A stretch of 20,000 bases of DNA, taken from the IMG/VR virus record IMGVR_UViG_3300010885_066780. The stretch is one strand, 5' to 3'. The position numbers were made by a program, and so were the translations under genes. This document shows positions 1,392 to 15,963 of this stretch, piece by piece. The notes below the pieces were generated by a model, which worked only from the letters and a program-made list of their open reading frames with translations, searched no databases and was not told the DNA's origin. This stretch comes from an uncultured virus (IMG/VR IMGVR_UViG_3300010885_066780) (taxonomy: Duplodnaviria; Heunggongvirae; Uroviricota; Caudoviricetes). Each line of letters starts with the position of its first letter. The first letter of the stretch is position 1.

Positions 1392-1464
1392 TGGAGCGAA
1401 TGCTGGTATTCGAAACCAGTGGGTCTGACAGGCAATCGGACTCCTCTCCCAGGAGGACATTCGC
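1392..1464 (-). tRNA. tRNA-Gly(GCC), atypical
   Basis: Acceptor GCGAATG/CATTCGC, U73, CCA; loop TT-GCC-TG; T arm CTGGT-TTCGAAT-ACCAG (U53-A61). Confidence 0.85.
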
Positions 1465-1472
1465 ATAAATTA

Positions 1473-1563
1473 TGGAGGATAGCGGAGAGAACGATTCCCA
1501 TACCATTTGAAAGGTACCAACTGTTTAGCAAACAGCGCCAACCACCCGGTTGATTCACTATCC
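1473..1563 (-). tRNA. tRNA-Ser(GCT), 8/4 fold with 6-bp D stem
   Basis: Acceptor GGATAGTG/CGCTATCC (8 bp), T stem GGGA/TCTC (4 bp), D arm TCAACC-GGGT-GGTTGG, long variable arm, loop TT-GCT-AA, CCA. Confidence 0.9.
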
Positions 1564-1566
1564 AAA

Positions 1567-1653
1567 TTATTTAAATGTGAACCAAGCTACCAGTCCCCAA
1601 AACACACTGGGAATTAATAAACAGATCCACATTCCAATATATCCTTTTTTCAT
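1567..1653 (-). CDS. Possible small membrane peptide, 28 aa
   Basis: MKKGYIGMWICLLIPSVFWGLVAWFTFK; hydrophobic, fills intergenic gap; no clear RBS. Confidence 0.4.
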   Translation of the reverse strand: MKKGYIGMWICLLIPSVFWGLVAWFTFK

Positions 1654-1673
1654 ATTTTAATTATATGAATTCG

Positions 1674-2978
1674 TTAATTGGAGTCAAGATGTTGTTGCGC
1701 AATATCTAAAGCATGTTCCAGGTCTGGAAAAGTTATTCCTAATAATTGTATAGCAGAAATAAGCATTACTGCTTCTTTGTAGTTTTTGCTCACCGTCAAT
1801 AGAGGAACAATAGTTTTCATGATTTCTCGATGAACAACTCGATCACTTTTCTTAGCAGGATCGGCAGCAACTTGGCGAACTACCGCAGCAATATCAGGAT
1901 AAGCAGTGGCATTTGATTTGAGTCTGAACCAGTCAACTGGATCAATTATGGTGGTATTAATTTGATATCGTCCATCGGATCTATCAGTCCAGTCTGCTGA
2001 AATTATATTCATTTGGTTTGTTTGCTTATTATAACGATAGGTCAAATATACTACATTGTTATTTTCAGATCCATATACTGCATAATAAGCGATCTTAAAT
2101 GGCATTCCCTTGAGAATCGCTACTCCGGAAGCATTACTGGAATTATCTTTCGGAGTCATTTGGTAATTGACTCCCGCAAATGTAACTATGTTTGCGTTGT
2201 TCTTTTTACACCATTCAATGAACTCATGAATAGTATTAGCGGTGGGCTGCTTGCTGAGTTTATAAGCAGTTAATCTAGCTTGTAGGTCTTTAGTGCCTTT
2301 TTCTATTTCCCAGCGAGATAACTGTCTTTTTTGTCTTTTACCCATTGCAACTTCATCCTGGAGAACGAGTTTTGCGGTCACAGGCTGGTTTTTTGTTTTG
2401 CCAAGCAGCATTATCATATTCATCAAGTCGGCTAGTGAACCAGTGTCGGTCTTTGTACCCGCTAACTTGTTGATATATTCAACTCGATTTTCTTCGCTAT
2501 AACCACCCACGTATTCATAGTCTTTAGTAGTTCGAATAGAAGAAGTAGGCAATGCGCGCAATTGTTGATTCCAAGGCAGCTCCTTGTTTATTGCTTCAAT
2601 ATCATCTTTATATGCAGACAAATCCCAGGCCATCCATTGTTCTCGACTGGCGCCAGCTAAATGATAGGCATCTGTAATTGCAAATATAACAGCTTGGTCA
2701 CCCATATAAACTGCGAATGCAACCGGATGCTTTTTATCAGCGGTTTGTTTTTTATATGCAGCTCGAATATCTTTTAGGCCATTTTTCAAAACGCTCAAAT
2801 CTATGACTGGACTGGTGTTTGATAGCCAATTATTTTGAACAAAACTAGGGTTGAATTTATTTTGTATAGTACTTGTTCTTCGACCATAATCATTTTGTTT
2901 CAACAAATCTCCCAATGGCCCCAAATTCAATTGAGCTAGGGTTCCCAAATCTTCTGTCAATACTTGCCAAAGTCTCAT
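1674..2978 (-). CDS. Hypothetical late/virion protein, ~434 aa
   Basis: Long ORF; N-terminus MRLWQVLTE resembles a capsid-targeting propeptide; ATAAATAG upstream at 3001-3008. Confidence 0.85.
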   Translation of the reverse strand: MRLWQVLTEDLGTLAQLNLGPLGDLLKQNDYGRRTSTIQNKFNPSFVQNNWLSNTSPVIDLSVLKNGLKDIRAAYKKQTADKKHPVAFAVYMGDQAVIFAITDAYHLAGASREQWMAWDLSAYKDDIEAINKELPWNQQLRALPTSSIRTTKDYEYVGGYSEENRVEYINKLAGTKTDTGSLADLMNMIMLLGKTKNQPVTAKLVLQDEVAMGKRQKRQLSRWEIEKGTKDLQARLTAYKLSKQPTANTIHEFIEWCKKNNANIVTFAGVNYQMTPKDNSSNASGVAILKGMPFKIAYYAVYGSENNNVVYLTYRYNKQTNQMNIISADWTDRSDGRYQINTTIIDPVDWFRLKSNATAYPDIAAVVRQVAADPAKKSDRVVHREIMKTIVPLLTVSKNYKEAVMLISAIQLLGITFPDLEHALDIAQQHLDSN

Positions 2979-3000
2979 CAATACACCAAATGTCTATTGA

Positions 3001-3017
3001 CTATTTATCATAAATAG
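3001..3017. promoter_or_regulatory. Back-to-back (bidirectional) T4-like late promoter motifs
   Basis: Perfect inverted repeat CTATTTAT-C-ATAAATAG between divergent genes. Confidence 0.7.
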
Positions 3018-3020
3018 TGG

Positions 3021-4448
3021 ATGCGTTACTGGGAAATAATAAACGAAGCTCTGAACATGGAGCTTACTATTCAAAATTGGGCCAAGCCACTTCGTGATCG
3101 AGTCAAAAGAGATACGAAATTTTCAATTCCGCCGCAAATGACAGATCAAGAATTGATTGATTGGTTTGCTCAATGGGATCCAACCAAAGCTAAAAAATAT
3201 TTGATCAATTGGATCTTACCACGATATGTCTGGGGTGGAATCAACTATGCAGAAGACTTGGAAGGAGTGCACGATGATCTAGCTAACTTTGATCGATTCA
3301 AACAACGCATGCCTGAAAAGGATATTCTAAAAATAAAGACGGCTGCTGAATTGGCGACTATGGTCCGTGAAACACTGAAACCACCTGGTAGCATAGACGG
3401 TCCAAATGGCACAATACCACCGGCTGAAGTACAAGCCGCTCATTCAGAATCCATAAAGGTATTTGAAGACGACACCAATCTGATTGTTATTCCTCTAACT
3501 GCTCGTGCAGCTGGATTCTGGGGACGCCATTCCAATTGGTGCACTGCCTATGGTTATAAATGGGGCAACTATCCTGATCGAACTAGTTGGTTTGAACAAT
3601 ATAATAATGAAGGACAACGATTGTTGACGGTTTTGAATAAACAAGATCCAGAAGCAATTGGATTGAATTTTCAATGTCATTATGATGGTCAATTTGGTGA
3701 AGCAAGTCAGATTATGGATTTGACAGATTATGATGCGATTGACGATAATAAATTGGCCAAAATATTTGAAAAATTATCTAATAGTCAATTGGAAATTATT
3801 GCCAAAAATTGTTTGGCGTATTATGATGTTGAAACCGACAATACCAGTCGATTCGACATTCATTCAACTAACAAAATTACGGCAGACAGCAGACTACTTG
3901 TAAAGAATATTAAATTTCCAGACTTGATAAAAGTACATGGTAATGACACGGCCAAATGGGCTTGGCAAACAATAGTTGGTGACCGGCATTTTGATACCCC
4001 ATATTTTGAAGAAAATCTGGAAACTATTGTGGAAGATCGATTACCTAGAAAACTCCGAGACAAGTTGGCCGCTTGGTTAGATAAAAAATATCCCGATTCC
4101 GAAAACGAATCCATTGCTGATTGCTTGGAAAATAATGACGAATATCAAATTATTGAAACACTGAAAAGTGAGAATTACAATGCTTTTCGGAATGGTTGCG
4201 AAGGTGCTATGTGGCAGGCATTCGACGAAGCTGTTTCAGAAGCCAATATTCAATTGATGGAACCTCACAACTATGAAGGACTGTGTTCAGTCATTGGTCC
4301 CAAAGTCATTGATTTCTTGAGTTATCCACGTTTTCGTGAAGATCCAGATGACAATCAATTAATTGTGTTGCAGGAACCCAATTATGGTTGGGATGGATAT
4401 GATAAATCAATTTGGGAACAAGGTGAGATAGAAGCGCTGTTGATTTAA
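3021..4448 (+). CDS. Hypothetical late/virion protein, 475 aa, with WCT-motif domain common in large phages
   Basis: N-terminus MRYWEIINE; segment LIVIPLT-AA-FWG-SNWCTA-F-QY; ATG 3 nt after ATAAATAG. Confidence 0.85.
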   Translation: MRYWEIINEALNMELTIQNWAKPLRDRVKRDTKFSIPPQMTDQELIDWFAQWDPTKAKKYLINWILPRYVWGGINYAEDLEGVHDDLANFDRFKQRMPEKDILKIKTAAELATMVRETLKPPGSIDGPNGTIPPAEVQAAHSESIKVFEDDTNLIVIPLTARAAGFWGRHSNWCTAYGYKWGNYPDRTSWFEQYNNEGQRLLTVLNKQDPEAIGLNFQCHYDGQFGEASQIMDLTDYDAIDDNKLAKIFEKLSNSQLEIIAKNCLAYYDVETDNTSRFDIHSTNKITADSRLLVKNIKFPDLIKVHGNDTAKWAWQTIVGDRHFDTPYFEENLETIVEDRLPRKLRDKLAAWLDKKYPDSENESIADCLENNDEYQIIETLKSENYNAFRNGCEGAMWQAFDEAVSEANIQLMEPHNYEGLCSVIGPKVIDFLSYPRFREDPDDNQLIVLQEPNYGWDGYDKSIWEQGEIEALLI

Positions 4449-4449
4449 T

Positions 4450-4524
4450 TGGGGTCTCTAGATGGAATCGCACCATCATGCCCGGGATATGAATCCGGTC
4501 CACTCGCTGTTGTGGTATAGAGAC
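4450..4524 (-). tRNA. tRNA-Met (or Ile2) (CAT)
   Basis: Acceptor GTCTCTA/TAGAGAC, C73, CCA; D stem CCAC/GTGG; loop TT-CAT-AT; T loop TGCGATT. Confidence 0.85.
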
Positions 4525-4542
4525 ATGAATATTCAAAAATTG

Positions 4543-5766
4543 TTATTCGTCATCTTCTTCATCATCAGTTGCATTGTCATCATGATTATCAGTTGTTCCA
4601 CTTGATGGATGTGAAGAGATGAAATTATAATCACTAGAAGTTCCTATATTTTCAGAAAATGTCATGCTCAATATTTTTTTACCAACATTTAATGGATCTA
4701 GTATACGTTTAGTGTAGTTATTGATTGCATTGACTTGTCCACGCGAATATCTCGCAATTATTCTAAACATAAGCAGGAAATCAGTATAATTGCTTGTTGA
4801 TGGCAATAATAAAAAGACTGATGACATAGCTCGAGATTGAATCATTGAGAATAATATACTACCAATAGTCACATGTATACGAACATCACGAATTCGAGGT
4901 AGCTGTCGCCCTGCACTGCCAGTTATTTTTATTTCCCAGGGATATTCCATTCTTTCATGAACATTTTCCATATCCACTTGTATTTGTTGACCATGTTCAG
5001 TTACAAATACGCATCGCATATGCCAAGCGCTATTGATTGTTTGGCTATAATCATATCTTTCTTTTTTATCCAAAATTGAATCTGATTTTAAAAATTCTGG
5101 CAGTGCTTCATTAAATGCATACTGCAATGAAGTTTCAACATCATCGATGCGACTTCTACGGATTTCCTTCACTCGGTTAACTAATATGTTCGTTATGCTA
5201 CTTTTTAGATACGATTCAGCATCAATTGCGCATACGACTAAAACATTTGATAATCTATTTGGTTGGATGTTTGTTTGATTTAAAGCAGTATTATCTTTTG
5301 CTAGATCTAATGTTACCCATCCAAATTTTTTCCCCAATCTGTTAGCTAAAGCACGGTATAATTTGTCATGACTATCTGTAGCTGGGTGACACTTAAAAAA
5401 TACTGGTTGAAATTTAATAATTACTTCTTCTAATGATTGCCTTACTGCTGAAAAAACTCTAGCAGCAGTAGATCCATAATTGTTAGAAACTCCAAATTCG
5501 CCGTCAACACTAAATTCAACATCATAACCAAATGCATTGCCAATATAAATTGCATCAAAGGTTATTTTAAATCTTAAAAATTCACCTTCTTGATCTCTAA
5601 TACGAGTGGAAGCATGTATAGATTTTTTGAGATTTCCACGCCATTCAAAGTCATATTTGGTATCAAGATATTCTAGAAACATATCTTTGTGATTTTCATT
5701 ATGTGGTTTTTTCAAACTTAAAGTTTCAAATAAATTAATAAACCTTCTTATTTCTTCAGAACTCAT
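4543..5766 (-). CDS. Hypothetical late/virion protein, ~407 aa, acidic C-terminus
   Basis: Likely start ATG 5766 (MSSEEIRRFINLFE, same N-terminal class as genes at 988 and 7829); ATAAATAC motif at 5791-5798. Confidence 0.85.
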   Translation of the reverse strand: MSSEEIRRFINLFETLSLKKPHNENHKDMFLEYLDTKYDFEWRGNLKKSIHASTRIRDQEGEFLRFKITFDAIYIGNAFGYDVEFSVDGEFGVSNNYGSTAARVFSAVRQSLEEVIIKFQPVFFKCHPATDSHDKLYRALANRLGKKFGWVTLDLAKDNTALNQTNIQPNRLSNVLVVCAIDAESYLKSSITNILVNRVKEIRRSRIDDVETSLQYAFNEALPEFLKSDSILDKKERYDYSQTINSAWHMRCVFVTEHGQQIQVDMENVHERMEYPWEIKITGSAGRQLPRIRDVRIHVTIGSILFSMIQSRAMSSVFLLLPSTSNYTDFLLMFRIIARYSRGQVNAINNYTKRILDPLNVGKKILSMTFSENIGTSSDYNFISSHPSSGTTDNHDDNATDDEEDDE

Positions 5767-5803
5767 TGAATGACCACTTAATAATTTCAAGTATTTATTC
5801 AAT

Positions 5804-5878
5804 TGGATGAAGCGATTGGGGTCGAACCAATAACTACCGATCCAGAGTCGGTCGTTTTACCAGTTAAACTACGCTTCA
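5804..5878 (-). tRNA. tRNA-Gln(CTG)
   Basis: TGAAGCG/CGCTTCA acceptor (U1-A72), ACCGA-CT-CTG-GA-TCGGT, TTCGA T loop, CCA. Confidence 0.95.
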
Positions 5879-5884
5879 AAATTT

Positions 5885-5959
5885 TGGCGCAGATGACCAG
5901 GATCGCACTGGCCTAACCCGTTAGACAGACGGGCCTCTTCACTAGATGAGTACACCTGC
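5885..5959 (-). tRNA. tRNA-Asp(GTC)
   Basis: GCAGGTG/CATCTGC acceptor, G73, CCCGT-CT-GTC-TA-ACGGG, T loop TGCGATC, CCA. Confidence 0.9.
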
Positions 5960-5967
5960 ATTATAGT

Positions 5968-6061
5968 TGGCGGAGGAAGGGTCGTATTGCACGCCTAACC
6001 GGGTCCTAGCCGGTTCTACAGTTTTCAAGACTGTCGTTGGAACTTTCCAACATCATCCTCC
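5968..6061 (-). tRNA. tRNA-Ser(TGA), atypical (8/4-like, 6-bp D stem)
   Basis: ACAGT-CT-TGA-AA-ACTGT, long variable arm AACCGG/CCGGTT, D arm GTTGGA-AAGT-TCCAAC, bulged T stem, G73, CCA. Confidence 0.85.
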
Positions 6062-6069
6062 GTGTGCTT

Positions 6070-6144
6070 TGGTACTAGCGGAAGGTAACGCTCCTTCTAC
6101 CACAGAGTTATCAGCTCTGGCCCTCACTTTTCGGACTCACTAGT
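6070..6144 (-). tRNA. tRNA-Ile(GAT)
   Basis: ACTAGTG/CGCTAGT acceptor, A73, CAGAG-CT-GAT-AA-CTCTG, T arm GAAGG-AGCGTTA-CCTTC, CCA. Confidence 0.9.
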
Positions 6145-6186
6145 ATGATTTTAAAACATTTGAGCTATGGGCACAAATAAATTTGT

Positions 6187-6420
6187 TTAAATGTCAGTTG
6201 CAGATCGGTGTGACTTATAATCACGCTCACGTTCTTGCAAATATAATCCATCTACGATAGCTGGATAAGTTTCCACAACCTGCCACCCATTGGTCCAAGT
6301 TCCCGCTTGTCGGAGCCGAACATATTTGCCTGGTATGGCATGCTCAACTGGGATCCAAGCCACATGAGTATCACCATTGACTCGTTTCAGTACCGCATGT
6401 TTATATTGATTTCGGTTCAT
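6187..6420 (-). CDS. Hypothetical protein, 77 aa
   Basis: GGAGG RBS before ATG 6420 (MNRNQYK...); the longer track ORF runs through tRNA-Asn. Confidence 0.8.
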   Translation of the reverse strand: MNRNQYKHAVLKRVNGDTHVAWIPVEHAIPGKYVRLRQAGTWTNGWQVVETYPAIVDGLYLQERERDYKSHRSATDI

Positions 6421-6450
6421 AGCTTTCCTCCTTGTGTTTGTTTGAATGAT

Positions 6451-6540
6451 TGGCTCCTGAGGGAGTAATCGAAACTCCATAACCCTTTCGGGTATACGCC
6501 GAGTTAACAGCTCGGTCACCTACCATTAGTGCACTCAGGA
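6451..6540 (-). tRNA. tRNA-Asn(GTT) with long variable arm
   Basis: TCCTGAG/CTCAGGA acceptor, G73, CCGAG-CT-GTT-AA-CTCGG, variable hairpin ACCC-GAAA-GGGT, CCA. Confidence 0.9.
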
Positions 6541-6549
6541 ATAAAAGAT

Positions 6550-6632
6550 TGGGCTACCGGGGTGGTTCCGCCCCACTTTCGACTGGGTTAAAAGGCCAGC
6601 GTCGGACTATCCTGACTATACGATCCCGGTAG
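6550..6632 (-). tRNA. tRNA-Lys(TTT)-like, 8/4 fold, enlarged D loop
   Basis: CTACCGGG/CCCGGTAG acceptor, C73, T arm GTGG-GGCGGAA-CCAC, CTGGC-CT-TTT-AA-CCCAG (C31.C39 mismatch), CCA. Confidence 0.75.
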
Positions 6633-6645
6633 ATTTTTTATTTAG

Positions 6646-6722
6646 TGGTAAGCCCTTTGGGATTTGAACCCAAAACCTACCTTCGTAGAGTCGGTCGCTC
6701 TGACCAGTTGAGCTAAGGGCTT
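6646..6722 (-). tRNA. tRNA with ambiguous anticodon arm: Arg(ACG) or amber-suppressor-like (CTA)
   Basis: Canonical acceptor AAGCCCT/AGGGCTT, D arm and TTCAAAT T arm; central segment ACCGACTCTACGAAGGTAGGTT folds in two registers. Confidence 0.8.
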
Positions 6723-6735
6723 ATATTATAAAAGT

Positions 6736-6822
6736 TGGAGAACCAGGTCAGAATCGAACTGACTAGGAGATTCCTCTCGACGAATTAAGAGTTCGTTGGA
6801 CCGACCATTGTCCATCTGGTTC
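6736..6822 (-). tRNA. tRNA-Lys(CTT) with long variable arm
   Basis: GAACCAG/CTGGTTC acceptor, U73, ACGAA-CT-CTT-AA-TTCGT, variable hairpin GAGA-GGAA-TCTC, TTCGATT, CCA. Confidence 0.9.
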
Positions 6823-6830
6823 ATATGTAG

Positions 6831-6910
6831 TGGCCCCACCCCGCTGAATTGAACAGCGTCCTCGAGTTTTTCAGACTCATGTGCTTACCATGTGAATACA
6901 CCTGAGTGGG
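6831..6910 (-). tRNA. tRNA-Phe(GAA), enlarged D loop
   Basis: CCCACTC/GGGTGGG acceptor, TGAGT-CT-GAA-AA-ACTCG, TTCAATT, CCA. Confidence 0.9.
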
Positions 6911-6919
6911 AAATTTGAA

Positions 6920-6996
6920 TGGTACGTTCGGAGGGATTTGAACCCCCAACCAACAGTTTCTAAAACTGCGCTCTCTGCCAATTGGAGTACGAACGC
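6920..6996 (-). tRNA. tRNA-Leu(TAG) lacking long variable arm
   Basis: GCGTTCG/CGAACGT acceptor, A73, GCAGT-TT-TAG-AA-ACTGT, 5-nt variable region, TTCAAAT, CCA. Confidence 0.9.
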
Positions 6997-7005
6997 ATGT
7001 AGAAT

Positions 7006-7084
7006 TGGGTGCGTCGGTGGGAAATGCTCAACCACGATCTCCGGCATATGAAACCGGCGAGATAGACTTCTTCTCTACTACGCA
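7006..7084 (-). tRNA. tRNA-Met(CAT), atypical T arm
   Basis: TGCGTAG/CGACGCA acceptor (one mismatch), CCGGT-TT-CAT-AT-GCCGG, bulged T stem with AGCATTT loop, CCA; 5' end overlaps endonuclease stop codon. Confidence 0.8.
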
Positions 7085-7623
7085 TCATTATTCTTTAGTT
7101 TGGTTTCTGATATCTTTTTTCTAATTTCATCAGGAACTACTTTACCGGTTAAGGCTTTTGCTATTTTTCCTTTAGTTTCTATAGAATGTTTTTTACCGAG
7201 ACGAGATTGTCTAATCTTTTCTATGGTTTCTGGAGAATGCTTTCGTGATTTATACTTAATTCTAGTTTCATCTGTTATGATTCTATCCGAACTTGCATAT
7301 GCAATCTTTTTCTTAGTAGAATTTGAATGACGCTTCCCCTTAAAGTGTGGACCGCCTTCGCCGCCTATACCAAGATTATATGTATCTGTTCTACTGACAA
7401 ATTCTTCAGTTATTAGTTCTTTTTCTTTGGAATTCATCTCTTCTTCTGTATCAAAGATGAATAAAACCTCTTTAGAAAATTTTTCTTTACCATATTTCTT
7501 AATGGCATCTCTTAAATGCTTTCCAGATCCTAAATAGGAATCATTTGGATCTTTGGTTTGATGTTTTCCAATATAGATTTTACCATTGATTAGGTTCTTG
7601 GTCTGATATATCGTATAGTACAT
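7078..7623 (-). CDS. GIY-YIG homing endonuclease with NUMOD3 repeats (SegB-like)
   Basis: TIY...NGKIYIG motif, YLGSG, AIKKYG; C-terminal repeats GKRHSNSTKKKI, RKHSPETIEKIR, GKKHSIETKGKI; freestanding within tRNA cluster like T4 segB. Confidence 0.92.
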   Translation of the reverse strand: MYYTIYQTKNLINGKIYIGKHQTKDPNDSYLGSGKHLRDAIKKYGKEKFSKEVLFIFDTEEEMNSKEKELITEEFVSRTDTYNLGIGGEGGPHFKGKRHSNSTKKKIAYASSDRIITDETRIKYKSRKHSPETIEKIRQSRLGKKHSIETKGKIAKALTGKVVPDEIRKKISETKLKNNDA

Positions 7624-7628
7624 TTTAT

Positions 7629-7653
7629 TACTCCTATATACGGAGTATTTATA
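7629..7653 (-). promoter_or_regulatory. Late promoter plus RBS-sequestering hairpin of the homing endonuclease
   Basis: TATAAATA (7646-7653) overlapping hairpin TACTCC-7nt-GGAGTA whose 3' arm is the RBS. Confidence 0.75.
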
Positions 7654-7702
7654 ATATCAGAAACCAGTTACTAACCATCTTGTCCTTCCTGCTATAAAAA
7701 TT

Positions 7703-7788
7703 TGGTCCATCACCTTGGATCCGCCCCAAGTATGCCCGAAGGCGCTCGATTTACAGTCGAGTCCAGTCTCTCATGCCGGTCGTGATGG
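7703..7788 (-). tRNA. tRNA-Tyr(GTA) with C1-G72
   Basis: CCATCAC/GTGATGG acceptor, A73, CTCGA-CT-GTA-AA-TCGAG, variable hairpin GCC-TTCG-GGC, T loop GGCGGAT, CCA. Confidence 0.9.
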
Positions 7789-7828
7789 ATAATAATAAAT
7801 AATCAGTATTGCATTTTTAGGAAAACAC

Positions 7829-8170
7829 ATGAGCTCAACTGAAATGAGAAAATATATTCAACTATTAGAGAATATAGAACTTGAAGAAAAATGGAGTGCC
7901 AAATATAAACGGAGTATTGATTGCACTCACCCCAAAGGTTTCAGTCAAAGAGCACATTGCGCCAGTAAAAAACAACAGAACGAAAGCACTGATGAAATGC
8001 AAATGACATGCCCAGATTGTGGTATGTGTGAAACACATGGCAACCTCAATGAGATCAAAAAAGGTCAAAAAGATGCAAATGGAGTGACCAAATGCTGGTC
8101 AGGTTATCATGCACAAGGAACCAAACCAGGTAAAAATGGAGGTCGAGTACGCAACTGTGTGCCTGATTGA
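7829..8170 (+). CDS. Cys-rich hypothetical late/virion protein, 113 aa
   Basis: AGGA RBS, ATAAATA upstream; N-terminus MSSTEMRKYIQLLE; mini-modules KWSAKYKRSIDC-PKGFSQRAHC, CPDCGMC, CWSGY...NCVP. Confidence 0.85.
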   Translation: MSSTEMRKYIQLLENIELEEKWSAKYKRSIDCTHPKGFSQRAHCASKKQQNESTDEMQMTCPDCGMCETHGNLNEIKKGQKDANGVTKCWSGYHAQGTKPGKNGGRVRNCVPD

Positions 8171-8193
8171 TTTTTATAAGTTATTGAAATGAT

Positions 8194-8270
8194 TGGGAGA
8201 ACCAGCGGGAATTGAACCCTGCATCCCTTGATTGAAAGTCAAGAATCTTCTGCCATTAGACGATGGTTCC
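8194..8270 (-). tRNA. tRNA-Glu(TTC)
   Basis: GGAACCA/TGGTTCT acceptor, CTTGA-CT-TTC-AA-TCAAG, TTCAATT T loop, CCA. Confidence 0.9.
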
Positions 8271-8309
8271 ATAAAGTGTTGGATGATGTAATTTAGTTGC
8301 TATAAAAGA

Positions 8310-8759
8310 TTAAGACTCTGCACCAAATTTCTTACGAAGACGTTCGAACTCTTTTCGATCCCGTTCTTCTTGCGCTTTGTCTCGTGCATATTTTTCTCGA
8401 GCCTGCTCTTCTAGCTTGATCTCTGTAATTTGCTTGAGACGTTGTTCTTCAATCGGATGCCAGTCAATTCCTAGATAGGATTGAGGAAAGGTCACTGTGA
8501 TTGAATCTTCAACTCGAGACCAATAAAAATACACACTTACGACAGGAGTTCCTACACCCCAATCAGGTCCTTCTTCACCTTCATGATAAGGGCTATGATA
8601 ATCAAAAAGACGATAGCGTTCAAATCCATATTGAGAGCTTAAAGATTGTTGTTCTCGCATTGAATAGATTTTACGAGCCATCTTGTTCAGCTTGTCCTCT
8701 ACTTGCTCTGTAGCTTGTTCAGCTTCACGAATCTGATCAAGTGTTAGGTAATCATTCAT
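8310..8759 (-). CDS. Hypothetical protein, 149 aa, C-terminal charged helix
   Basis: AAGGA RBS before ATG 8759 (MNDYLT...), downstream of sigma70-type promoter. Confidence 0.8.
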   Translation of the reverse strand: MNDYLTLDQIREAEQATEQVEDKLNKMARKIYSMREQQSLSSQYGFERYRLFDYHSPYHEGEEGPDWGVGTPVVSVYFYWSRVEDSITVTFPQSYLGIDWHPIEEQRLKQITEIKLEEQAREKYARDKAQEERDRKEFERLRKKFGAES

Positions 8760-8796
8760 TGAGTTTTCCTTTTCAATTTTGGTATTACTCATAAGC

Positions 8797-8824
8797 ATAA
8801 TACCACATAATATTATATTGTCAA
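8797..8824 (-). promoter_or_regulatory. Sigma70-type (early) promoter
   Basis: TTGACA-16-TATTAT with TG at extended -10. Confidence 0.65.
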
Positions 8825-8841
8825 GAAGAATCATAAAATAT

Positions 8842-8916
8842 TGGATGATCCCCTAGGCCACGATCCTAGATATCCAAAGCCAAAATTTGGCGACTTACCA
8901 ATTAGTCGAGGGATCA
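8842..8916 (-). tRNA. tRNA-Gln(TTG)
   Basis: TGATCCC/GGGATCA acceptor, CCAAA-TT-TTG-GC-TTTGG, T loop ATCGTGG, CCA. Confidence 0.9.
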
Positions 8917-8962
8917 ATAATTTCTGTTCGATGTTTTTTTGATATAAAAATTTATATGACTG

Positions 8963-9240
8963 CTACCAATACGTAAATTTAAAAATGTAAATTTTATAAA
9001 ATTTTATTACCTTTTTTCTATTTTCTGATTTAGTTAGGTATTGTAAGTTTGAAATAGAATGCAACCCTCCTTTGGATATAGGGATAATATGATCGACCTC
9101 ATATCCTTCGGGACAAGCTTCATAAAATTTTTTAATTGCTGAAAGATCTTCGTCATGTGGAGTATTATATTTCTTTTTGGCATTATATCTCGCCCATGCT
9201 TCTCGTTTGATACCTCGCGTGTGTTCTTTTGATACCTTGG
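8963..9240 (-). pseudogene. HNH endonuclease, probably 5'-truncated and frameshifted near the 3' end
   Basis: YEVDHIIPISKGGLHSISNLQYLTKSENRKK; upstream part of the ORF is the antisense of another gene; one extra A in the A6 run (~9012-9017) would give KKGNKIL-stop. Confidence 0.7.
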
Positions 9241-9438
9241 GTAGATTCCAATAATAAAAATAGAAAATATTTTCCGGATTTTTACCTACCAAAATATGAT
9301 CTTTATTTAGATCCAAAAAATGATTACCAAATAAAGATTGGTCAAGAAAAGTTAGATTGTGTTTCAAACAAAATTCATCTAATTTATGGTCGAGTTGAAT
9401 ATATTCAACAATATATTTTGAATATCATGACCAGTTAA
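9229..9438 (+). pseudogene. PD-(D/E)XK (TnsA-N/homing-type) endonuclease C-terminal fragment
   Basis: IPWVD...RKYFPDFYLPKYDLYLDPKNDY motif; only a TTG start, N-terminal part apparently missing. Confidence 0.65.
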
Positions 9439-9473
9439 ACTGCCCGGCAACAATTTATAGCATATAATAAAAA

Positions 9474-11786
9474 CTAATCAGGATATAGTGCAGCCAAAGC
9501 TTCAGCACTGTCTGCACGAGTATTACCGGTGCCTATATCCAGGTGTGCTTGACAATATGCTCGTATCTCATGTCCAGGGATACGAGAGATTGCACTGGGT
9601 GGTATGGGGTTGGTGCTATACACAGGATGAAAACGTTGCATGTCTAAAGCTGGGTCATCAAACACTGTCCAATCTTTTGGCAAGCTTATGCGCCAAATGT
9701 CGGTGGGTTCCCTATAAGGTCTAGACCACGTTGCCCATTCACATACATCTTCAAATCGCCTAAACATATAAACCCCAGGTATTCTTTGACGTTGAGTATA
9801 TTTTTTGATCATGACCAACAGTCCCAATCTCTCAATGTTATGCCTAGATTCAGATGGACTCATATGATAGAAAGTTTGAGAACCTGTTTGTTCATTCAAT
9901 ATAAATTCATAAGCTCTCATACTGTTATTTATGGTCTGGGTGGGAAGTTTTGCAATTCCAGCCTCTTGCAAGCCTAACACGTTAATTTCAAACTGTCTTT
10001 CAATCCATTTCTTTGCATCGTTTTCTTTTTCATATAAACTACTTTTTATATAATATCCGTCACGCCCATCAGGATAAATTGCCGCAATCCAGCCTGCGGT
10101 TTGCTTTTTGATATATCCAATGTATCTTTTAGAATTAGCAACATTGGAATATTTCATGCTTACATCATAACTAACGTTGCCATCGCTTGAAGTGGATTTT
10201 ACATATATAAAATCAACGTTGTGTTTTTTACTAAAATTAAACATTTCGTCCAGTGGTTCACCCATGTCATTTACTGAGCTACGCATATGTGATTGCCATT
10301 CTGGAACATGATCAATTGCACTAACGACAAATTCCATTACAGCAGCGACCGCATCTGGATTATCACCAAAGAATTCTTCTAAATCACGGTAACCAATATC
10401 ATGTACCAACTTTTCCAGTGTTCTAGCATCAACGCTTGGGTTGTTTCTCATCCACAGATCTATTGAATTGCCAGCTGTATTTGATTCTGAAACATTAATT
10501 CTTTTTTCATGATCGCCATTATAGCTGGGTTGACGAGTATTGTCCAGGTATTCTTTTTTAACCCAGTTGATAGCAGCCTGTGAAGTTTTAAAACCGCGTT
10601 GGGATTTTTTGGTTGTATTGGAATAAGCAGACCAAGTTTCTCCGTTTGTGGATTTTTGTACTATTCCAACTTGTTTGCCACCGTCACTAATGATTGCTTC
10701 TTGACCTTTTTTTGTCCAATGAGCTTTGGGTTCTACTACATTTTCCATCAATGATTTGTTGGGATCAGCTGCTGCGGTTTTGACAGCATCGGAAATTTCT
10801 CGGGTACTAGCATTTGGCATTACTACTCGAATGGCTGCTGTGACTGCTGCTTGATCTCGGTGTCCCAATTCTTTTTCATCATAGATGGTTTCAAACATTT
10901 GAGTAATTTTGGCCAGATCGTCAGGATGTAAATCATACCCACGATGTTTTTTTAGCATGCCAATTGCTCGTTCCACGAATTGTTCTTTGGATATTGGTGT
11001 TTCATCACTTTCATCCAAGTCTTCTGGTCCTCGATAAGTCCACATTTTTTTCAAAATATTAATACCAAAAATTGCAACACCGACTGCTCCTAATAGATCA
11101 ACTAGTGTAGAAAATTCAGTGTCTGATTCAGTTACTTTTCCCCAGCCTGTTTTTGCACGAATAGCAAAAGTCACTTCTTGTTGTTTGGTGTATTCTTCAG
11201 AACCTTTTTTATGGGGTCCTGATGCCTTCAACTTTTTTAATTCTGCTTTTAAAGCAGCTACTGTTTTACCAGCAAACATACCTTTTTTCTTTTTTGGAGT
11301 CTTCATTTTAGAAACCCATTTTTCCATGAGATTGCTATTTGCTGCTAAACGAGCTTCTTTTTCAGTTGCATATCCTTCATGACCTTGTATGATTACATGC
11401 CCATTACGAGATTTATACCAAAACCACATTCCATCAGAATCTTGATATACTTTGACTTCTGTTTGATCAGTATTGTTTATGGGATCGTCCCAGGTTTCCA
11501 TGACTTGGTCATGAGTTGATTTGGGAGTTTTAGAGTTGATGGCTGCTTGAATTTTTTCTATTTTTAATTCAATGGCTTTTATAGCTGCATCGGGTTTTTT
11601 AGTCCCTTTTGCATAACGCAATTTACGGCGTTCTTCTTCCAACTGTTCTTCGAGTGCATCCAATGACAAACCAGAATAGGGATTGGTATCATTTGAATCT
11701 TCTTGAATCGAAGCTGATTCAGTCAATGTTGTTTTTTCAATTGAATTAAATTGATCTAGTAAATTTCTTATGTCTTTGGCACTCAT
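9474..11786 (-). CDS. Modular late/virion protein, 770 aa, with DUF1508/YegP-like module and C-terminal ADP-ribosyltransferase/Tpt1-fold-like domain
   Basis: AAGGA RBS and TATAAATA upstream; VYQDSDGMWFW..SRNGHVI..GHEGYATEKEA; C-terminal TFYHMS..NIERLGL..GVYMF..IWRI..IPPSAI; many [LIV]xE sites. Confidence 0.85.
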   Translation of the reverse strand: MSAKDIRNLLDQFNSIEKTTLTESASIQEDSNDTNPYSGLSLDALEEQLEEERRKLRYAKGTKKPDAAIKAIELKIEKIQAAINSKTPKSTHDQVMETWDDPINNTDQTEVKVYQDSDGMWFWYKSRNGHVIIQGHEGYATEKEARLAANSNLMEKWVSKMKTPKKKKGMFAGKTVAALKAELKKLKASGPHKKGSEEYTKQQEVTFAIRAKTGWGKVTESDTEFSTLVDLLGAVGVAIFGINILKKMWTYRGPEDLDESDETPISKEQFVERAIGMLKKHRGYDLHPDDLAKITQMFETIYDEKELGHRDQAAVTAAIRVVMPNASTREISDAVKTAAADPNKSLMENVVEPKAHWTKKGQEAIISDGGKQVGIVQKSTNGETWSAYSNTTKKSQRGFKTSQAAINWVKKEYLDNTRQPSYNGDHEKRINVSESNTAGNSIDLWMRNNPSVDARTLEKLVHDIGYRDLEEFFGDNPDAVAAVMEFVVSAIDHVPEWQSHMRSSVNDMGEPLDEMFNFSKKHNVDFIYVKSTSSDGNVSYDVSMKYSNVANSKRYIGYIKKQTAGWIAAIYPDGRDGYYIKSSLYEKENDAKKWIERQFEINVLGLQEAGIAKLPTQTINNSMRAYEFILNEQTGSQTFYHMSPSESRHNIERLGLLVMIKKYTQRQRIPGVYMFRRFEDVCEWATWSRPYREPTDIWRISLPKDWTVFDDPALDMQRFHPVYSTNPIPPSAISRIPGHEIRAYCQAHLDIGTGNTRADSAEALAALYPD

Positions 11787-11830
11787 AGCAAATCCTTTTA
11801 TTATCCACTATTTATACCAAAATATAAAAA

Positions 11831-11925
11831 TAGCCACAGCCCCCACGCCCGCCTGACTACTGACCTTTTCCTAATTGTTCATGCCCCTCGAGTGGAGGTC
11901 AATTGTACCTAGAAGGCCTTACCGA
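11831..11925 (-). ncRNA. Candidate structured ncRNA downstream of tRNA-Trp
   Basis: GC-rich non-coding island with nested stems GGCCTT/AAGGTC, AATTG/CAATT, CCTC/GAGG, then a G-rich tail and U-rich run. Confidence 0.45.
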
Positions 11926-11931
11926 ATTATT

Positions 11932-12005
11932 TGGCCACCGCACCTGGAATCAAACCAAGATCATCTGTTTTGGAGACAGAGGCCCTATCATTGGACGATA
12001 CGGTA
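11932..12005 (-). tRNA. tRNA-Trp(CCA)
   Basis: TACCGTA/TGCGGTG acceptor, G73, TCTGT-CT-CCA-AA-ACAGA, T loop TTTGATT, CCA. Confidence 0.9.
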
Positions 12006-12023
12006 GCATAAAATATTTCTAAA

Positions 12024-12865: not shown

Positions 12866-13321
12866 CTATTTGTTCTTTTGCAGGCTCACCAGTTCCAGAT
12901 AAAAGTGGAAATACTTTTCCATGCGGGCCATGTCCTTGGGAGTCACACCCTTGAGTCTAGTGATCTGAGTGTTATGGTTCAAATCAGACATCTTTACCAG
13001 CACTGCATCTGGGTTGCCTTTGACCTTGTCCTTATATTCTTCATAGGATTCACCAGGCACTTTGGTCATGCAACGAATGCCATCAATGATTCGATCTGTG
13101 AAACCAAGTTCTCTGAGTTGGTTGTAAGTCACATCACAATCTTCAACAATGTCATGACCCAGGGCGATGCATTGCAGTTCTTCATCGTCCGACTTGAGTC
13201 CATACATCACAGACAGAGCGTGCAGAATGTAGGGGTTGCCGCCCTTGTCAAACTGACCAGCATGAGAGTTGGTAGCCAGTACCAACATCTTGTTTAGGAG
13301 TTCGCCCTTTTTGAAAGTCAT
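12866..13321 (-). CDS. HD-domain RelA/SpoT-family hydrolase (small alarmone hydrolase/Mesh1-like)
   Basis: HAGQ.DKGG.PYI.H, ALGHDIVED, VKMSDLNHN motifs; AAAGGAG RBS. Confidence 0.88.
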   Translation of the reverse strand: MTFKKGELLNKMLVLATNSHAGQFDKGGNPYILHALSVMYGLKSDDEELQCIALGHDIVEDCDVTYNQLRELGFTDRIIDGIRCMTKVPGESYEEYKDKVKGNPDAVLVKMSDLNHNTQITRLKGVTPKDMARMEKYFHFYLELVSLQKNK

Positions 13322-14251: not shown

Positions 14252-15811
14252 TCACCGATTTTCTGCTGGAGTTGCTACGTCAATCAATTCTCGCAGTGCA
14301 CGAGTAATTGCCACATATTCCAGATTGACTTCTTGAACTTGTTGCCAAGCCTTCTTTGCATAGGGAGAAGGCATATACCTGTCACGTCCTAAAATATAAA
14401 CTCGGTGCCATTCGCGCCCCTTTGAACGATGTACCGTTGACAGCGTCAGGACTTCTGGCAACCGATCATCTGGTGTATTACCAAACATGCGATCAATGTC
14501 AGCTACTAGATCATCTACCAAGTCTCGCTTTTGCAGCAAGCACCGATTGATAATCACTCGGAGGCAATCTATCTGATCAACCAGAGCTTCAACGCGCCCT
14601 TCTTGCCCCTTGCTCATAAACTTGGCAGTTTGGCGAGCTTCAAAATCTTCCAGCTTGGTCAACAGTCGGTCCAGAGTCTTGATTTTCCAACGTCGGGCCA
14701 GCTTGATCAAACCAGTTCCAATTTCACGTCCTTCAACCCGACAAGCGATTCCCCGAGACAAGAGTGAATAAGCGGTCGTTACCAGAGGAGCTGTGTTTCT
14801 GCAAAGAATGGCATCGGTCTTTCCCAGTCCTTCAGCATCAAGTTCTTCAAACTTGATTGATCGGATGACGCCATCTTCACTGTCTTCCCAAGCTTTGAAG
14901 TCGGGAACAAGTCGTTGTGCTTCAGCAACCACCAGCTTGGGGCAACGACGAGTCACATTCAGTGGCATCGTAACTGCATTAGTTGCCTGCTTGAGTTGGT
15001 TCATGGAATCACTGTCAGCTCCAGTAAATCCATAAATTGCTTGGCAGGGATCTCCCACAAAAATCATTCGACCAGTACGTGGCTTCAACATGGCCATAGC
15101 CAATGCTCGTCGCGCCGGGTTGGTGTCTTGTGATTCATCCAGGAGGATCCAATCCTTGGGCCAGAAACGAGCCTTAAAATAAAGCGGGGCCAGGATCATG
15201 TCATCAAAGTCAATTACTTCTCGACATTGGTTGAGGCTGATTCTGTAGACTGCTTGCGCTGCTCGAATTACAGCAGCAACATCCACATCTTCAGCAACAT
15301 CATCTTCAATTCCAAAGTGATCCCAGATGTCCCACCAAAGAGCTGTGTCTTCAATTCTGCCCAAGTGACCAATTGCACGTTGCTTGGCCAAGCTGGCCAA
15401 CTTAGCAATAGCAGTGTCACATTCGGTATAGATGGCACCTTCAGGTTGAAAGCTTTGTTCTTTAATAATGTTGGCCAACTTCTTGTCATCCACTCGGACG
15501 TTGGGAGCAATCTTTCTCCAAGCTGAAAATCCAAAGCTATGAACAGTGCCAGCCTGTGCAACTCGCCAGTCGAACTTGGCTTCTTCCAACCAAACCTTAA
15601 GTTCGTCAGCGATCTTCTTGTTATAAGCCATGAGTGCCACATCACCAAACCGACCATCAACAATGGCTTCAACCACTCGCTTGAGGGTAAATGTTTTGCC
15701 ACATCCAGCACGTGCCAGCAGTTCAAGAGATCCGGTTCCTTCATATACCCAGCGAATGACTGCCAGTTGTTGATCGGAAAGTCCTTGCCAGCGAGTAGGG
15801 TTGAAAGCCAT
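14252..15811 (-). CDS. UvrD/Rep-family SF1 DNA helicase, ~519 aa
   Basis: LSDQQ Q-motif, ARAGCGKT Walker A, TVHSFG, LLDESQD, VGDPCQAIYGFTGA, TRRCP, STVHRSKGREW, YVAITRA; AAGGA RBS before ATG 15811. Confidence 0.93.
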   Translation of the reverse strand: MAFNPTRWQGLSDQQLAVIRWVYEGTGSLELLARAGCGKTFTLKRVVEAIVDGRFGDVALMAYNKKIADELKVWLEEAKFDWRVAQAGTVHSFGFSAWRKIAPNVRVDDKKLANIIKEQSFQPEGAIYTECDTAIAKLASLAKQRAIGHLGRIEDTALWWDIWDHFGIEDDVAEDVDVAAVIRAAQAVYRISLNQCREVIDFDDMILAPLYFKARFWPKDWILLDESQDTNPARRALAMAMLKPRTGRMIFVGDPCQAIYGFTGADSDSMNQLKQATNAVTMPLNVTRRCPKLVVAEAQRLVPDFKAWEDSEDGVIRSIKFEELDAEGLGKTDAILCRNTAPLVTTAYSLLSRGIACRVEGREIGTGLIKLARRWKIKTLDRLLTKLEDFEARQTAKFMSKGQEGRVEALVDQIDCLRVIINRCLLQKRDLVDDLVADIDRMFGNTPDDRLPEVLTLSTVHRSKGREWHRVYILGRDRYMPSPYAKKAWQQVQEVNLEYVAITRALRELIDVATPAENR

Positions 15812-15842
15812 GACGTCAAATCCTTGTGCAATCTCTTTGTCT

Positions 15843-15870
15843 ATCATACAAGTTTTTGAAAAGTTGTCAA
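15843..15870 (-). promoter_or_regulatory. Sigma70-type promoter for helicase
   Basis: TTGACA-16-TATGAT. Confidence 0.65.
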
Positions 15871-15963
15871 GAGTGATCTTTGAACAGCATAAATAAATTA
15901 GATAGTTGTGGCGGAAATCGACCACAACTCAAAAACCCTTCAGCAGAAAGTGATTGAAACAAA

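Follow-up and report, generated by a model that had tools for sequence, protein, structure and literature searches.

Paired replacement of G18 and U55 in tRNA genes of an uncultured freshwater phage and in a wider class of phage tRNAs

We analyzed a 20,000-nucleotide (nt) stretch of DNA from an uncultured virus assigned to Caudoviricetes (IMG/VR record IMGVR_UViG_3300010885_066780), hereafter called the window, and found in its positions 1392-12005 a tRNA array from an uncultured phage of freshwater origin, a relative of ~360-kb jumbo phages. The array consists of 17 tRNA genes on the minus strand, plus one doubtful Lys-UUU-like gene. Six of the 17 carry G instead of U at position 55 of the T-loop and, together with it, A instead of G at position 18 of the D-loop, i.e., on both sides of the tRNA elbow. 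This paired change is real, lies far beyond chance and generalises outside the window. Judging from the sequences, it is highly probable that the array genes are working tRNA genes and that these six belong to a widespread phage class with a compensated A18/G55 elbow; their interpretation as selected, compensated structural variants is supported by the comparisons described below.

By textbook account, tRNAs of the cytoplasmic type do not vary at G18, G19, T54, Psi55 and C56. The corresponding G18-G19 and U54-U55-C56 signature is broken by A18 and G55 in the six genes Met-4450, Asp, Ser-UGA, Ile, Met-7006 and Tyr, whose D-loops all contain AG and never GG, while Trp lacks G19 and C56. The remaining 11 genes (Gly, Ser-GCU, Gln-CUG, Asn, Arg, Lys-CUU, Phe, Leu, Glu, Gln-UUG and Trp) possess U55, and G18 is retained in all of them. 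GG is found in the D-loop of ten of these, the exception being Trp, where A19-U56 stands in place of G19-C56 and the 7-nt D-loop makes the numbering unambiguous. The exact probability of finding AG in 6/6 G55 genes and 0/11 U55 genes is 1/C(17,6), i.e., 1 in 12,376 or 8e-5 (hand arithmetic). As for positions 54/58, U/A prevails, A/U occurs in Ile, Met-7006, Gln-UUG and Ser-GCU, and G/G in Tyr; thus, U54/A58 is missing from four genes through the A/U swap and from Tyr through G/G. A sequence-only reading of this DNA had described most of this pattern. The six G55 T-loops that it quoted are all present as written and face AG D-loops, its statement that U55 tRNAs keep G18 holds for 11 of 11 genes, and both the G18-A19/U56 combination of Trp and the three forms of 54/58 co-variation were recovered. 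Its description of the remodelling as systematic stands as far as the paired nature of the change is concerned, but not for the array as a whole, of which only 6 of 17 genes are remodelled. The genes are listed below, with scores or detecting programs at the end of each line (MFE, minimum free energy; bp, base pairs).

1392..1464, minus strand: tRNA-Gly(GCC), D-loop CUGGGA, T-loop UUCGAAU, canonical elbow; U37, one anticodon-stem mismatch; ARAGORN -ps85 and -mt
1473..1563, minus strand: tRNA-Ser(GCU), D-loop GGGU, T-loop AUCGUUC (A54/U58, U55, C56); 8-bp acceptor stem, 4-bp T stem, 6-bp D stem, 4-nt D-loop; MFE fold, ARAGORN -ps85
4450..4524, minus strand: tRNA-Met(CAU), D-loop AACAGCGA (A18 G19), T-loop UGCGAUU (G55 C56), alternative elbow; ARAGORN default 104.6, Rfam tRNA 47.1 bits, scanner 20/21 pairs
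5804..5878, minus strand: tRNA-Gln(CUG), D-loop AACUGGUA, T-loop UUCGACC, canonical elbow; ARAGORN default, Rfam, scanner
5885..5959, minus strand: tRNA-Asp(GUC), D-loop UCUAGUGA, T-loop UGCGAUC, G73, alternative elbow; ARAGORN only at -ps85 (98.0) or -mt, scanner 20/21 pairs with CCA, no Rfam match at E<=10
5968..6061, minus strand: tRNA-Ser(UGA), D-loop AAGU, T-loop UGCAAUA (G55), G73; 8/4-like, with an acceptor U-U mismatch, 6-bp D stem and 4-nt D-loop; MFE fold, ARAGORN -ps85 90.8
6070..6144, minus strand: tRNA-Ile(GAU), A8, D-loop AAAAGUG, T-loop AGCGUUA (A54 G55 C56 G57 U58), alternative elbow; ARAGORN -mt only, scanner 20/21 pairs with CCA
6451..6540, minus strand: tRNA-Asn(GUU), D-loop AAUGGUA, T-loop UUCGAUU, canonical elbow, long variable arm; ARAGORN, scanner
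6550..6632, minus strand: doubtful Lys(UUU)-like gene, T-loop GGCGGAA (G54 G55 C56 G57 G58), encoded CCA; 8-bp acceptor stem, 4-bp T stem, oversized aberrant D region with the direct repeat AUAGUC...AUAGUC; hand reading and fold, missed by every ARAGORN mode and by Rfam
6646..6722, minus strand: tRNA-Arg(ACG), canonical elbow, 6-bp anticodon stem with one mismatch; ARAGORN, Rfam
6736..6822, minus strand: tRNA with anticodon CUU (Lys), D-loop AAUGGUCG, T-loop UUCGAUU, canonical elbow, 16-nt variable arm; ARAGORN, scanner, sub-threshold Rfam tRNA-Sec match (40.5 bits vs. a 47-bit cut-off)
6831..6910, minus strand: tRNA-Phe(GAA), 13-nt D-loop containing GG, T-loop UUCAAUU; ARAGORN -mt 115.3, partial Rfam match of 23.4 bits
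6920..6996, minus strand: tRNA-Leu(UAG), canonical elbow, 5-nt variable region; ARAGORN, Rfam, scanner
7006..7084, minus strand: tRNA-Met(CAU), D-loop AGAAGUCUA, T-loop AGCAUUU (A54 G55 C56 A57 U58); initiator-like D stem GAGA/UCUC (A11:U24); irregular T arm, either a 4-bp stem with an 11-nt loop or, given a 2-nt bulge, the loop AGCAUUU; ARAGORN -mt 110.7
7703..7788, minus strand: tRNA-Tyr(GUA), G8, D-loop CAUGAGAGA, T-loop GGCGGAU (G54 G55 C56 G57 G58), A73, long variable arm; ARAGORN -ps85 93.1, scanner 21/21 pairs with CCA
8194..8270, minus strand: tRNA-Glu(UUC), canonical loops, one bulged A in the T stem; ARAGORN, Rfam
8842..8916, minus strand: tRNA-Gln(UUG), D-loop with GG, T-loop AUCGUGG (A54/U58 swap, U55 C56); ARAGORN 112, scanner 21/21 pairs, no Rfam match at E<=10
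11932..12005, minus strand: tRNA-Trp(CCA), 7-nt D-loop AAUGAUA (G18 A19), T-loop UUUGAUU (U55 U56); ARAGORN, Rfam, scanner

This set was drawn from relaxed ARAGORN (-ps85), ARAGORN -mt, MFE folds and a custom cloverleaf scanner, which leaves the loop sequence unconstrained and requires an encoded CCA and standard arm lengths. Default ARAGORN recovers nine of the window tRNAs, and Rfam at its gathering score (29 bits) 6 of the 17. A four-arm cloverleaf with a 12-bp acceptor/T stack and a 7-nt anticodon loop is present in all 17 genes (with the T arm of Met-7006 being irregular), and 20-21 of 21 stem pairs were scored by the scanner in ten of them, the others being recognized by relaxed ARAGORN, the -mt mode and folds. 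All 17 also end in an encoded NCCA. In the tRNA regions of related phages, CCA was found at 90 of 96 scanner matches on the tRNA-bearing strand and at none of 19 on the opposite one (six-genome control, leaving out locus L066, which holds no CCA-tailed match). Since the opposite-strand cloverleaf matches carry none, we regard the encoded NCCA as an independent mark of authenticity. Discriminator bases likewise match the anticodons, with G73 in Asp, Ser-UGA and Trp, and A73 in Tyr, Ile and Leu. The window G55 genes share 28-49% identity with one another outside the loops, the same range as with the U55 genes, and are therefore not recent duplicates. Judged by lost stem pairing and by a variant state that relatives do not share, only the Lys-UUU-like gene at 6550-6632 may be a pseudogene.

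The assignment of the D-loop bases to positions 18 and 19 was supported in several ways. The D-loops of the two Ser genes (GGGU and AAGU) align column by column, which makes the change from G18 to A18 unambiguous, and in the Rfam covariance model the A and G of Met-4450 fall in columns 18 and 19. In D-loops of 8-9 nt, the 18/19 register is ambiguous from the window alone and is settled by the 7-nt loops found elsewhere.

Related phages were reached through the UvrD-type helicase encoded in the window, which is 65-73% identical to helicases of ten IMG/VR contigs. Two of these, G002 and G001, are complete phage genomes of 358 and 368 kb with terminal repeats, in which Rfam detects 54 and 53 tRNAs, respectively. 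Among 90 CCA-tailed tRNAs from relatives picked by the helicase alone (G001, G002, G004 and G005), we found one G55 gene, the Phe-GAA gene of G001 (D-loop AUCUAGUGA, T-loop AGCGUAA). Its D-loop matches that of the window Asp gene, and it is missed by both default ARAGORN and the Rfam search. A search pattern was built on this D-loop, with either G or U allowed at position 55. Among the 120 IMG/VR matches listed, at least 110 are perfect cloverleaf tRNA-Phe genes, all with G55, and the others (nine with U55, one with G55) are not cloverleaves. The 73 unique sequences of the family differ in their stems, of which there are 44 acceptor, 40 anticodon and 21 T versions. Pairing is complete at 7/7 in 71 of the 73 and at 5/5 in all 73. 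This near-perfect pairing of diverged stems points strongly to selection on the folded tRNA. Applied to 596 Gb of bacterial and archaeal genomes (185,579 species), the same pattern gave 66 matches, of which eight are cloverleaves, most on contigs of metagenome-assembled genomes. The A18/G55 class is thus essentially phage-restricted, as far as cellular genomes scanned with the Phe pattern only can tell. G55 genes sit in arrays beside canonical tRNAs. A single G55 gene was found in 79 of 111 loci seeded on the Phe gene, and in several arrays the G55 gene is the sole one for its anticodon within the stretch examined.

The main comparison was made on tRNAs around the Phe-family genes and those of the relatives, 680 of which were left once members of the seed family and duplicates had been removed. 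The D-loop is 7 nt long in 231 of these unique tRNAs; 28 of the 231 have both A18 and G55, 203 have neither, and no mixed state was seen. The 28 cover 13 anticodons and 18 loci. When D-loops of all lengths are considered, GG is missing in 53 of 58 non-seed G55 tRNAs and present in 597 of 611 with U55, and the five G55 tRNAs with GG also have AG upstream. In an independent sample obtained with a canonical T-arm seed and not chosen for G55 (137 loci, 280 non-seed unique tRNAs), G55-C56 occurs in seven tRNAs (~2.5%), all without GG and with AG; its four U56 tRNAs all have G-A and its single A56 tRNA has G-U. A 7-nt T-loop with G55-C56, combined with A-G and no G-G at 18-19, was found in 6/6 window genes, 28/28 genes of the main comparison and 7/7 of this control. 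The covariation noted in the window therefore did not disappear in a larger alignment. Altogether, G55 tRNAs represent 27 anticodons, for each of which U55 members exist as well, and class features persist in them: G3-U70 is present in 3 of 3 Ala genes, and the variable arms of Tyr, Ser and Leu-UAG are long. The loops of the window Ile gene recur in Ile-GAU genes of four IMG/VR loci (L107, L120, L131 and L143). A family of initiator-like Met genes, which includes Met-7006, shares the D stem GAGA/UCUC and a 1:72 mismatch and holds both elbow types, with six AGUAGUA-type D-loops accompanied by UGCAAUU-type T-loops and five AGUGGCA-type D-loops by UUCGAAU-type T-loops. The nearest relatives of Met-7006 are Met genes with the same D stem and either type of elbow.

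Since A18 and G55 go hand in hand and mixed states are all but missing, each change is tolerated only with its partner; even with counts uncorrected for kinship, the near absence of such states across large divergence means that selection eliminates single-step intermediates. The yeast suppressor tRNA shows a matching intolerance to single changes, as single mutants at 18-55, 19-56 and 54-58 are reported to inactivate it, none being tolerated (PMC4117946). The claim that these are selected functional variants and not products of decay is, in our view, strongly supported, as the paired states recur in hundreds of phage tRNAs with diverged, still-pairing stems.

Other tertiary positions show comparable pairing. 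Positions 19/56 of tRNAs with 7-nt D-loops comprise 223 G-C, 4 A-U, 1 U-A and 3 non-pairs; one of the 28 A18+G55 tRNAs also carries U19 with A56 and is thus doubly swapped, and A19-U56 also occurs in the Val-UAC and Cys-GCA genes of G001. At 54/58, the non-seed tRNAs include 606 U/A, 45 A/U, 10 C/A, 10 A/A, 5 G/G and few others. A54 is accompanied by U58 in 45 of 56 cases, whereas U58 without A54 was seen once in 624; A54/U58 was also found in Glu and Gln-UUG genes of the helicase-picked relatives. G53-C61 closes the 7-nt T-loop in 51 of 54 G55 tRNAs. A57 (29/54) and A60 (26/54) are enriched in this class as compared to the canonical one (75/598 and 42/598). We also observed that positions 8/14 vary together in phage tRNAs, as A8/U14, G8/G14 or C8/A14 (IMG/VR loci L067-L186, window Ile and Tyr), while the entire G55 tRNA-Phe family has A8 with A14, which suggests a wider plasticity of the tertiary core.

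Most members of the class escape default annotation. The expectation that such genes would score poorly with standard finders was borne out, as default ARAGORN detects 34 of 132 G55 tRNAs (26%) vs. 604 of 612 with U55 (99%), and a single one of the 73 Phe-family genes. Of the six G55 genes of the window, default ARAGORN and Rfam at the gathering score each find one (Met-4450 in the case of Rfam). Elsewhere the Rfam covariance model performs better than ARAGORN, with G55 tRNAs scoring 39-58 bits (L107, L187). Cultured phages also carry such genes. In Pseudomonas phage Boevelstad, an unannotated G55 tRNA-Phe (Rfam, 43 bits) lies between an annotated tRNA-Gly and the terminase gene. It was the only match in a blastn search of cultured phages with one G55 tRNA-Phe, a result that says little on prevalence because blastn is insensitive to tRNAs with diverged stems. 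A T5-like Salmonella phage possesses a Met-like gene with T-loop GGCAGUA and D-loop GCAUAGAG; its Ile gene shows A19-U56, and its Phe gene A54/U58. With 98.7-100% conservation, the Met-like G55 gene recurs across 57 T5-like records from Salmonella, E. coli and Shigella phages, among them HildyBeyeler, IrisVonRoten and DT57C, and not one of the 54 annotated records labels it a tRNA. It resembles an initiator tRNA in its U1-U72 mismatch (L254:10777-10852).

In the elbow that we propose, A18 with G55 would replace G18 with pseudouridine-55 at the D-loop/T-loop corner. The outer Watson-Crick pair 19-56 is kept, as G-C or, in Trp, as A-U, and the intraloop 54-58 pair takes co-varying forms, U/A, A/U and G/G in the window and C/A and A/A elsewhere. 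In known tRNAs, residue 18 is described to stack between 57 and 58 and to contact 55, and the distal face of the 19-56 pair to serve as the recognition surface for RNase P, the L1 stalk, protein L5 and T-boxes (PMC4810234). By analogy, A18 may still stack between 57 and 58 and contact G55, which would assume the turn-forming role of U55. The L-shape would then be preserved, together with the flat face of the 19-56 pair that RNase P, the ribosome and other partners recognize, while nucleotides modified or inspected by host enzymes (G18, U54 and U55) would be replaced. By chemistry, G55 cannot become pseudouridine-55, A54 or G54 cannot become 5-methyluridine-54, and Gm18 cannot be formed on A18; that the loss of modifiable bases is the reason for the selection of this elbow is a conjecture. 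The sequence-only reading had suggested that altered elbows may escape tRNA-targeting effectors or make TrmA/TruB modification dispensable, and both suggestions are conjectural as well. The D-loop reads A-G-N-G-A in window Met-4450, Asp, Ile and Tyr and in the entire Phe family, and may itself be a T-loop-like pentanucleotide, so that the elbow may consist of interdigitated T-loops similar to those of RNase P, the L1 stalk and T-boxes. Two other arrangements were rejected: a Watson-Crick partner for G55 in the D-loop, as 7-nt loops such as AAAAGUA hold no C, and a GNRA fold of the T-loop (G55-C56-R57-A58), which fits only the U54/A58 subclass and not AGCGUUA or GGCGGAU.

Like canonical bacterial-type tRNAs (RF00005), the members of the class have a cloverleaf, a 7/5 or 8/4 stack, a 7-nt T-loop closed by G53-C61, a Watson-Crick 19-56 pair, an anticodon loop and a CCA end; they differ from them by A18, G55, the frequent A/U or G/G at 54/58 and the enrichment of A57 and A60. 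A natural, co-occurring replacement of a "universal" tertiary pair, with a purine at 60, is also reported for eukaryotic initiator tRNA and AGC-tRNAAla with A54/A58. These, however, keep G18, G19 and U55 and are stated in that source to be absent from bacteria and archaea (PMC7566577), whereas in the phage class the 18-55 contact is replaced and 54/58 takes the forms A/U, G/G and C/A. tRNAPyl and animal mitochondrial tRNAs are described as functional without G18-G19 and T-Psi-C, but with shrunken or absent loop-loop contacts (PMC7609411). In the phage class, loop sizes are normal and the D-loop co-varies with the T-loop, an argument that the loop-loop contact is retained. T5 tRNALys, which evades the PARIS nuclease AriB, likewise differs from the host tRNA at positions read by a host protein, including U16, yet in its case the anticodon stem and U16 are altered, and experiments link these changes to a single nuclease (PMC12409363). 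Both window tRNASer resemble the (8/4) tRNASer (allo-tRNA) reported from phage tRNA clusters, with an 8-bp acceptor stem, a 4-bp T stem, a long D stem, a 4-nt D-loop and a long variable arm, as in tRNASec (PMC5389517). These features are clean in Ser-GCU (1473-1563) and accompanied by one U-U mismatch and a weak T stem in Ser-UGA (5968-6061). The main text of that paper contains no mention of G18, G19, U55, the D-loop or the T-loop. In the literature searched, outside which most subscription journals lie, neither A18/G55 covariation nor a phage-wide class is described, and an earlier mention is possible. G55, A18, tRNA and D-loop occurred together only in a paper on mitochondrial DNA variants, and U55G with G18A in none.

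Several observations weigh against our interpretation of the class as working, compensated tRNAs. The main comparison was drawn mostly from loci picked for a G55 tRNA-Phe, and the Fisher probability of 1e-36 for its 231 tRNAs ignores kinship. The scanner counts cover only CCA-encoding tRNAs with standard arms, as the scanner demands both. The independent sample holds three U55-C56 tRNAs without GG (L319 Gly, AACAGUA with GUCAGCA; L322 and L379, AGAAGAG[U/A]A with UUCAAGU), and the three non-pairs at 19/56 are one A19/A56 and two U19/C56. Ten non-seed unique tRNAs have C55 (U54-C55-C56, UCCGAxx) mostly with unchanged G18-G19; T-loops of this kind were located in L057, L059, L060, L062, L063 and L064 (relatives G001, G002 and G005). 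How A18 and G55 would be hydrogen-bonded is a matter of conjecture. The T arm of Met-7006 and the T stem of Ser-UGA, with 3/5 pairs in the 7/5 register, are structurally poor, and both genes could be decaying. Finally, Staphylococcus aureus tRNAGly species without G18-G19 and U55 are reported to be kept from translation (PMC13443448); these non-proteogenic tRNAs share the loss of those bases with the phage class and differ in serving one amino acid, being chromosomal and being excluded from translation.

As a pathway of decay, in which the aberrant genes would be pseudogenes mutating in their most conserved loops, the pattern is very improbable and, for the class, already contradicted. Low finder scores, the irregular arms of Met-7006 and Ser-UGA, the broken Lys-UUU-like gene and a related strain that appears without single tRNA genes, or with replaced ones, would agree with it, but stems are paired at 20-21 of 21 positions, and the A18/G55 state keeps reappearing in hundreds of genes that have diverged from one another, with stem changes that compensate each other and without mixed states. 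That the G55 tRNAs are not translation adaptors at all, but tRNA-like decoys or donors for another pathway, has a precedent in the S. aureus tRNAGly (PMC13443448). We consider it quite unlikely given their 27 anticodons, the G3-U70 pair of all three Ala genes, the long variable arms of Tyr, Ser and Leu-UAG, and the arrays, as far as examined, in which the G55 gene alone serves its anticodon. The T-loop of the staphylococcal tRNAGly probably reads UGC. The phage restriction of the class and the many unassigned open reading frames (ORFs) interleaved with the tRNAs leave some room for self-marking, whereby a phage enzyme (a tRNA nuclease, modifier, ligase or CCA-adding enzyme) would distinguish the phage's own tRNAs or these would escape the phage's own attack. 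This too seems unlikely, as those ORFs show no nuclease or modification domain except for GIY-YIG and HNH homing endonucleases and an HD-domain fragment, and the class occurs in very different phages with, so far, no common recognised gene.

As to why working tRNAs with a compensated elbow exist in phages, two explanations appear about equally likely, and each is tentative. One is counter-defence, which is compatible with the structural explanation because it concerns the reason for the elbow: it would hide phage tRNAs from host effectors that read or cut G18-G19 or T54-Psi55-C56, so that phage translation continues during an attack on the host tRNAs. We know of no elbow-directed anti-phage effector, none was found in this analysis, and no defence or anti-defence gene was recognised among the window ORFs. 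The near confinement of the class to viral sequence and its position in arrays beside canonical tRNAs speak in favor of counter-defence, as do a bacterial toxin reported to cut the T-loop between the conserved T and Psi (PMC9086364) and AriB, which reads the D-loop U16 and which T5 tRNALys escapes via point changes (PMC12409363). Yet, only a minority of tRNAs is remodelled in most arrays, as the 79 of 111 Phe-seeded loci illustrate, and the remodelled identities (Phe, initiator-like Met, Ile, Tyr and Gln) are not known to be among the usual nuclease targets. The other explanation is neutral: A18-G55 would be a second workable geometry, reached by a rare double change and then held by purifying selection with no adaptive benefit, and phage tRNAs would sample this state because they are fast-evolving and individually dispensable. 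Array tRNAs indeed depart from the norm in other ways (C55, A8/U14, G8/G14, bulged T stems, 6-bp anticodon stems, odd variable arms), one tRNA family holds both elbow types, and G55 tRNAs make up ~2.5% of the unselected sample (7/280). Less easily reconciled with neutrality are the D arm of the Phe family, invariant across at least 44 acceptor stems, the majority of G55 among Phe genes of the sampled loci (74 vs. 14 with U55, in a seed-biased sample), and the fact that cellular genomes, with a far longer evolution, essentially never fix this state, Psi55 being near-universal (PMC7912444). The broadest proposal, that phages maintain a parallel A18-G55 tRNA architecture for nearly all amino-acid identities as counter-defence, keeping the 19-56 surface and erasing the G18, T54 and Psi55 marks, strikes us as rather doubtful.

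For structural biology, a natural and widespread A18/G55 double replacement would offer a ready-made double-mutant cycle of the tRNA corner. It would also mean that phage tRNAs are systematically under-counted by current finders and annotations, and would provide a testable lead on phage-host tRNA differences at sites touched by host proteins. T5-like coliphages, among them BASEL phages on E. coli K-12, can be cultured, as can a Pseudomonas phage.

The gene content of the 20-kb window is phage-like, with a G+C content of 38%. Besides a terminase large-subunit fragment, the following genes were recognized:

7078-7623, minus strand: GIY-YIG homing endonuclease gene (with NUMOD3), between tRNA genes, as in T5-like tRNA regions
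8963-9367, minus strand: HNH homing endonuclease gene, between tRNA genes, as in T5-like tRNA regions
12866-13321, minus strand: HD-domain protein of 151 amino acids (aa), aligned only to positions 151-293 of the 374-position phrog_990 (metal-dependent phosphohydrolase)
14252-15925, minus strand: UvrD-type helicase

The HD-domain protein is encoded just upstream of the tRNA array, possibly as a fragment or by a split gene. The odd tRNAs could suggest that the DNA is mitochondrial or comes from a plastid, but the phage helicase, the terminase fragment and the homing endonucleases argue against this. The window as a whole has no match among cultured phages (megablast), an exact 40-mer from its start has none in IMG/VR, and its helicase is ~40% identical to those of cultured siphoviruses. 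No relatives of the 770-aa and 475-aa ORFs were found in IMG/VR, and in the related contigs the helicase is not adjoined by tRNAs, which in G001 and G002 are located elsewhere. The window DNA is present in freshwater metagenome runs of several studies, and no RNA run turned up. In contigs of another freshwater run, a ~90%-identical strain skips or replaces the stretches 1469-1574, 6545-6725, 8204-8841 and 11935-12009, which correspond to Ser-GCU, the Lys-UUU-like gene with Arg, an ORF, and Trp, respectively; therefore, tRNA content differs between close strains.

Some further features of the tRNAs may be mentioned. Long variable arms are found on window Asn-GUU (6451-6540) and Lys-CUU (6736-6822); among relatives, long-arm tRNAs have the anticodons UAU and GUU (L057:17759-17851 and L060 c11838-11928), and a T5-like phage has a long-arm Asn-GUU (L254:8944-9029). 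In turn, the variable region of window Leu(UAG) is 5 nt long vs. 13-17-nt arms in Leu genes of relatives. G001 and G002 each encode two tRNAs with anticodon CUA, labelled "Pyl" by ARAGORN (L058:4199-4272 and 6682-6759; L061 c5454-5531 and c5547-5621), of which there are none in the window; these are possible amber suppressors and hint at TAG recoding.

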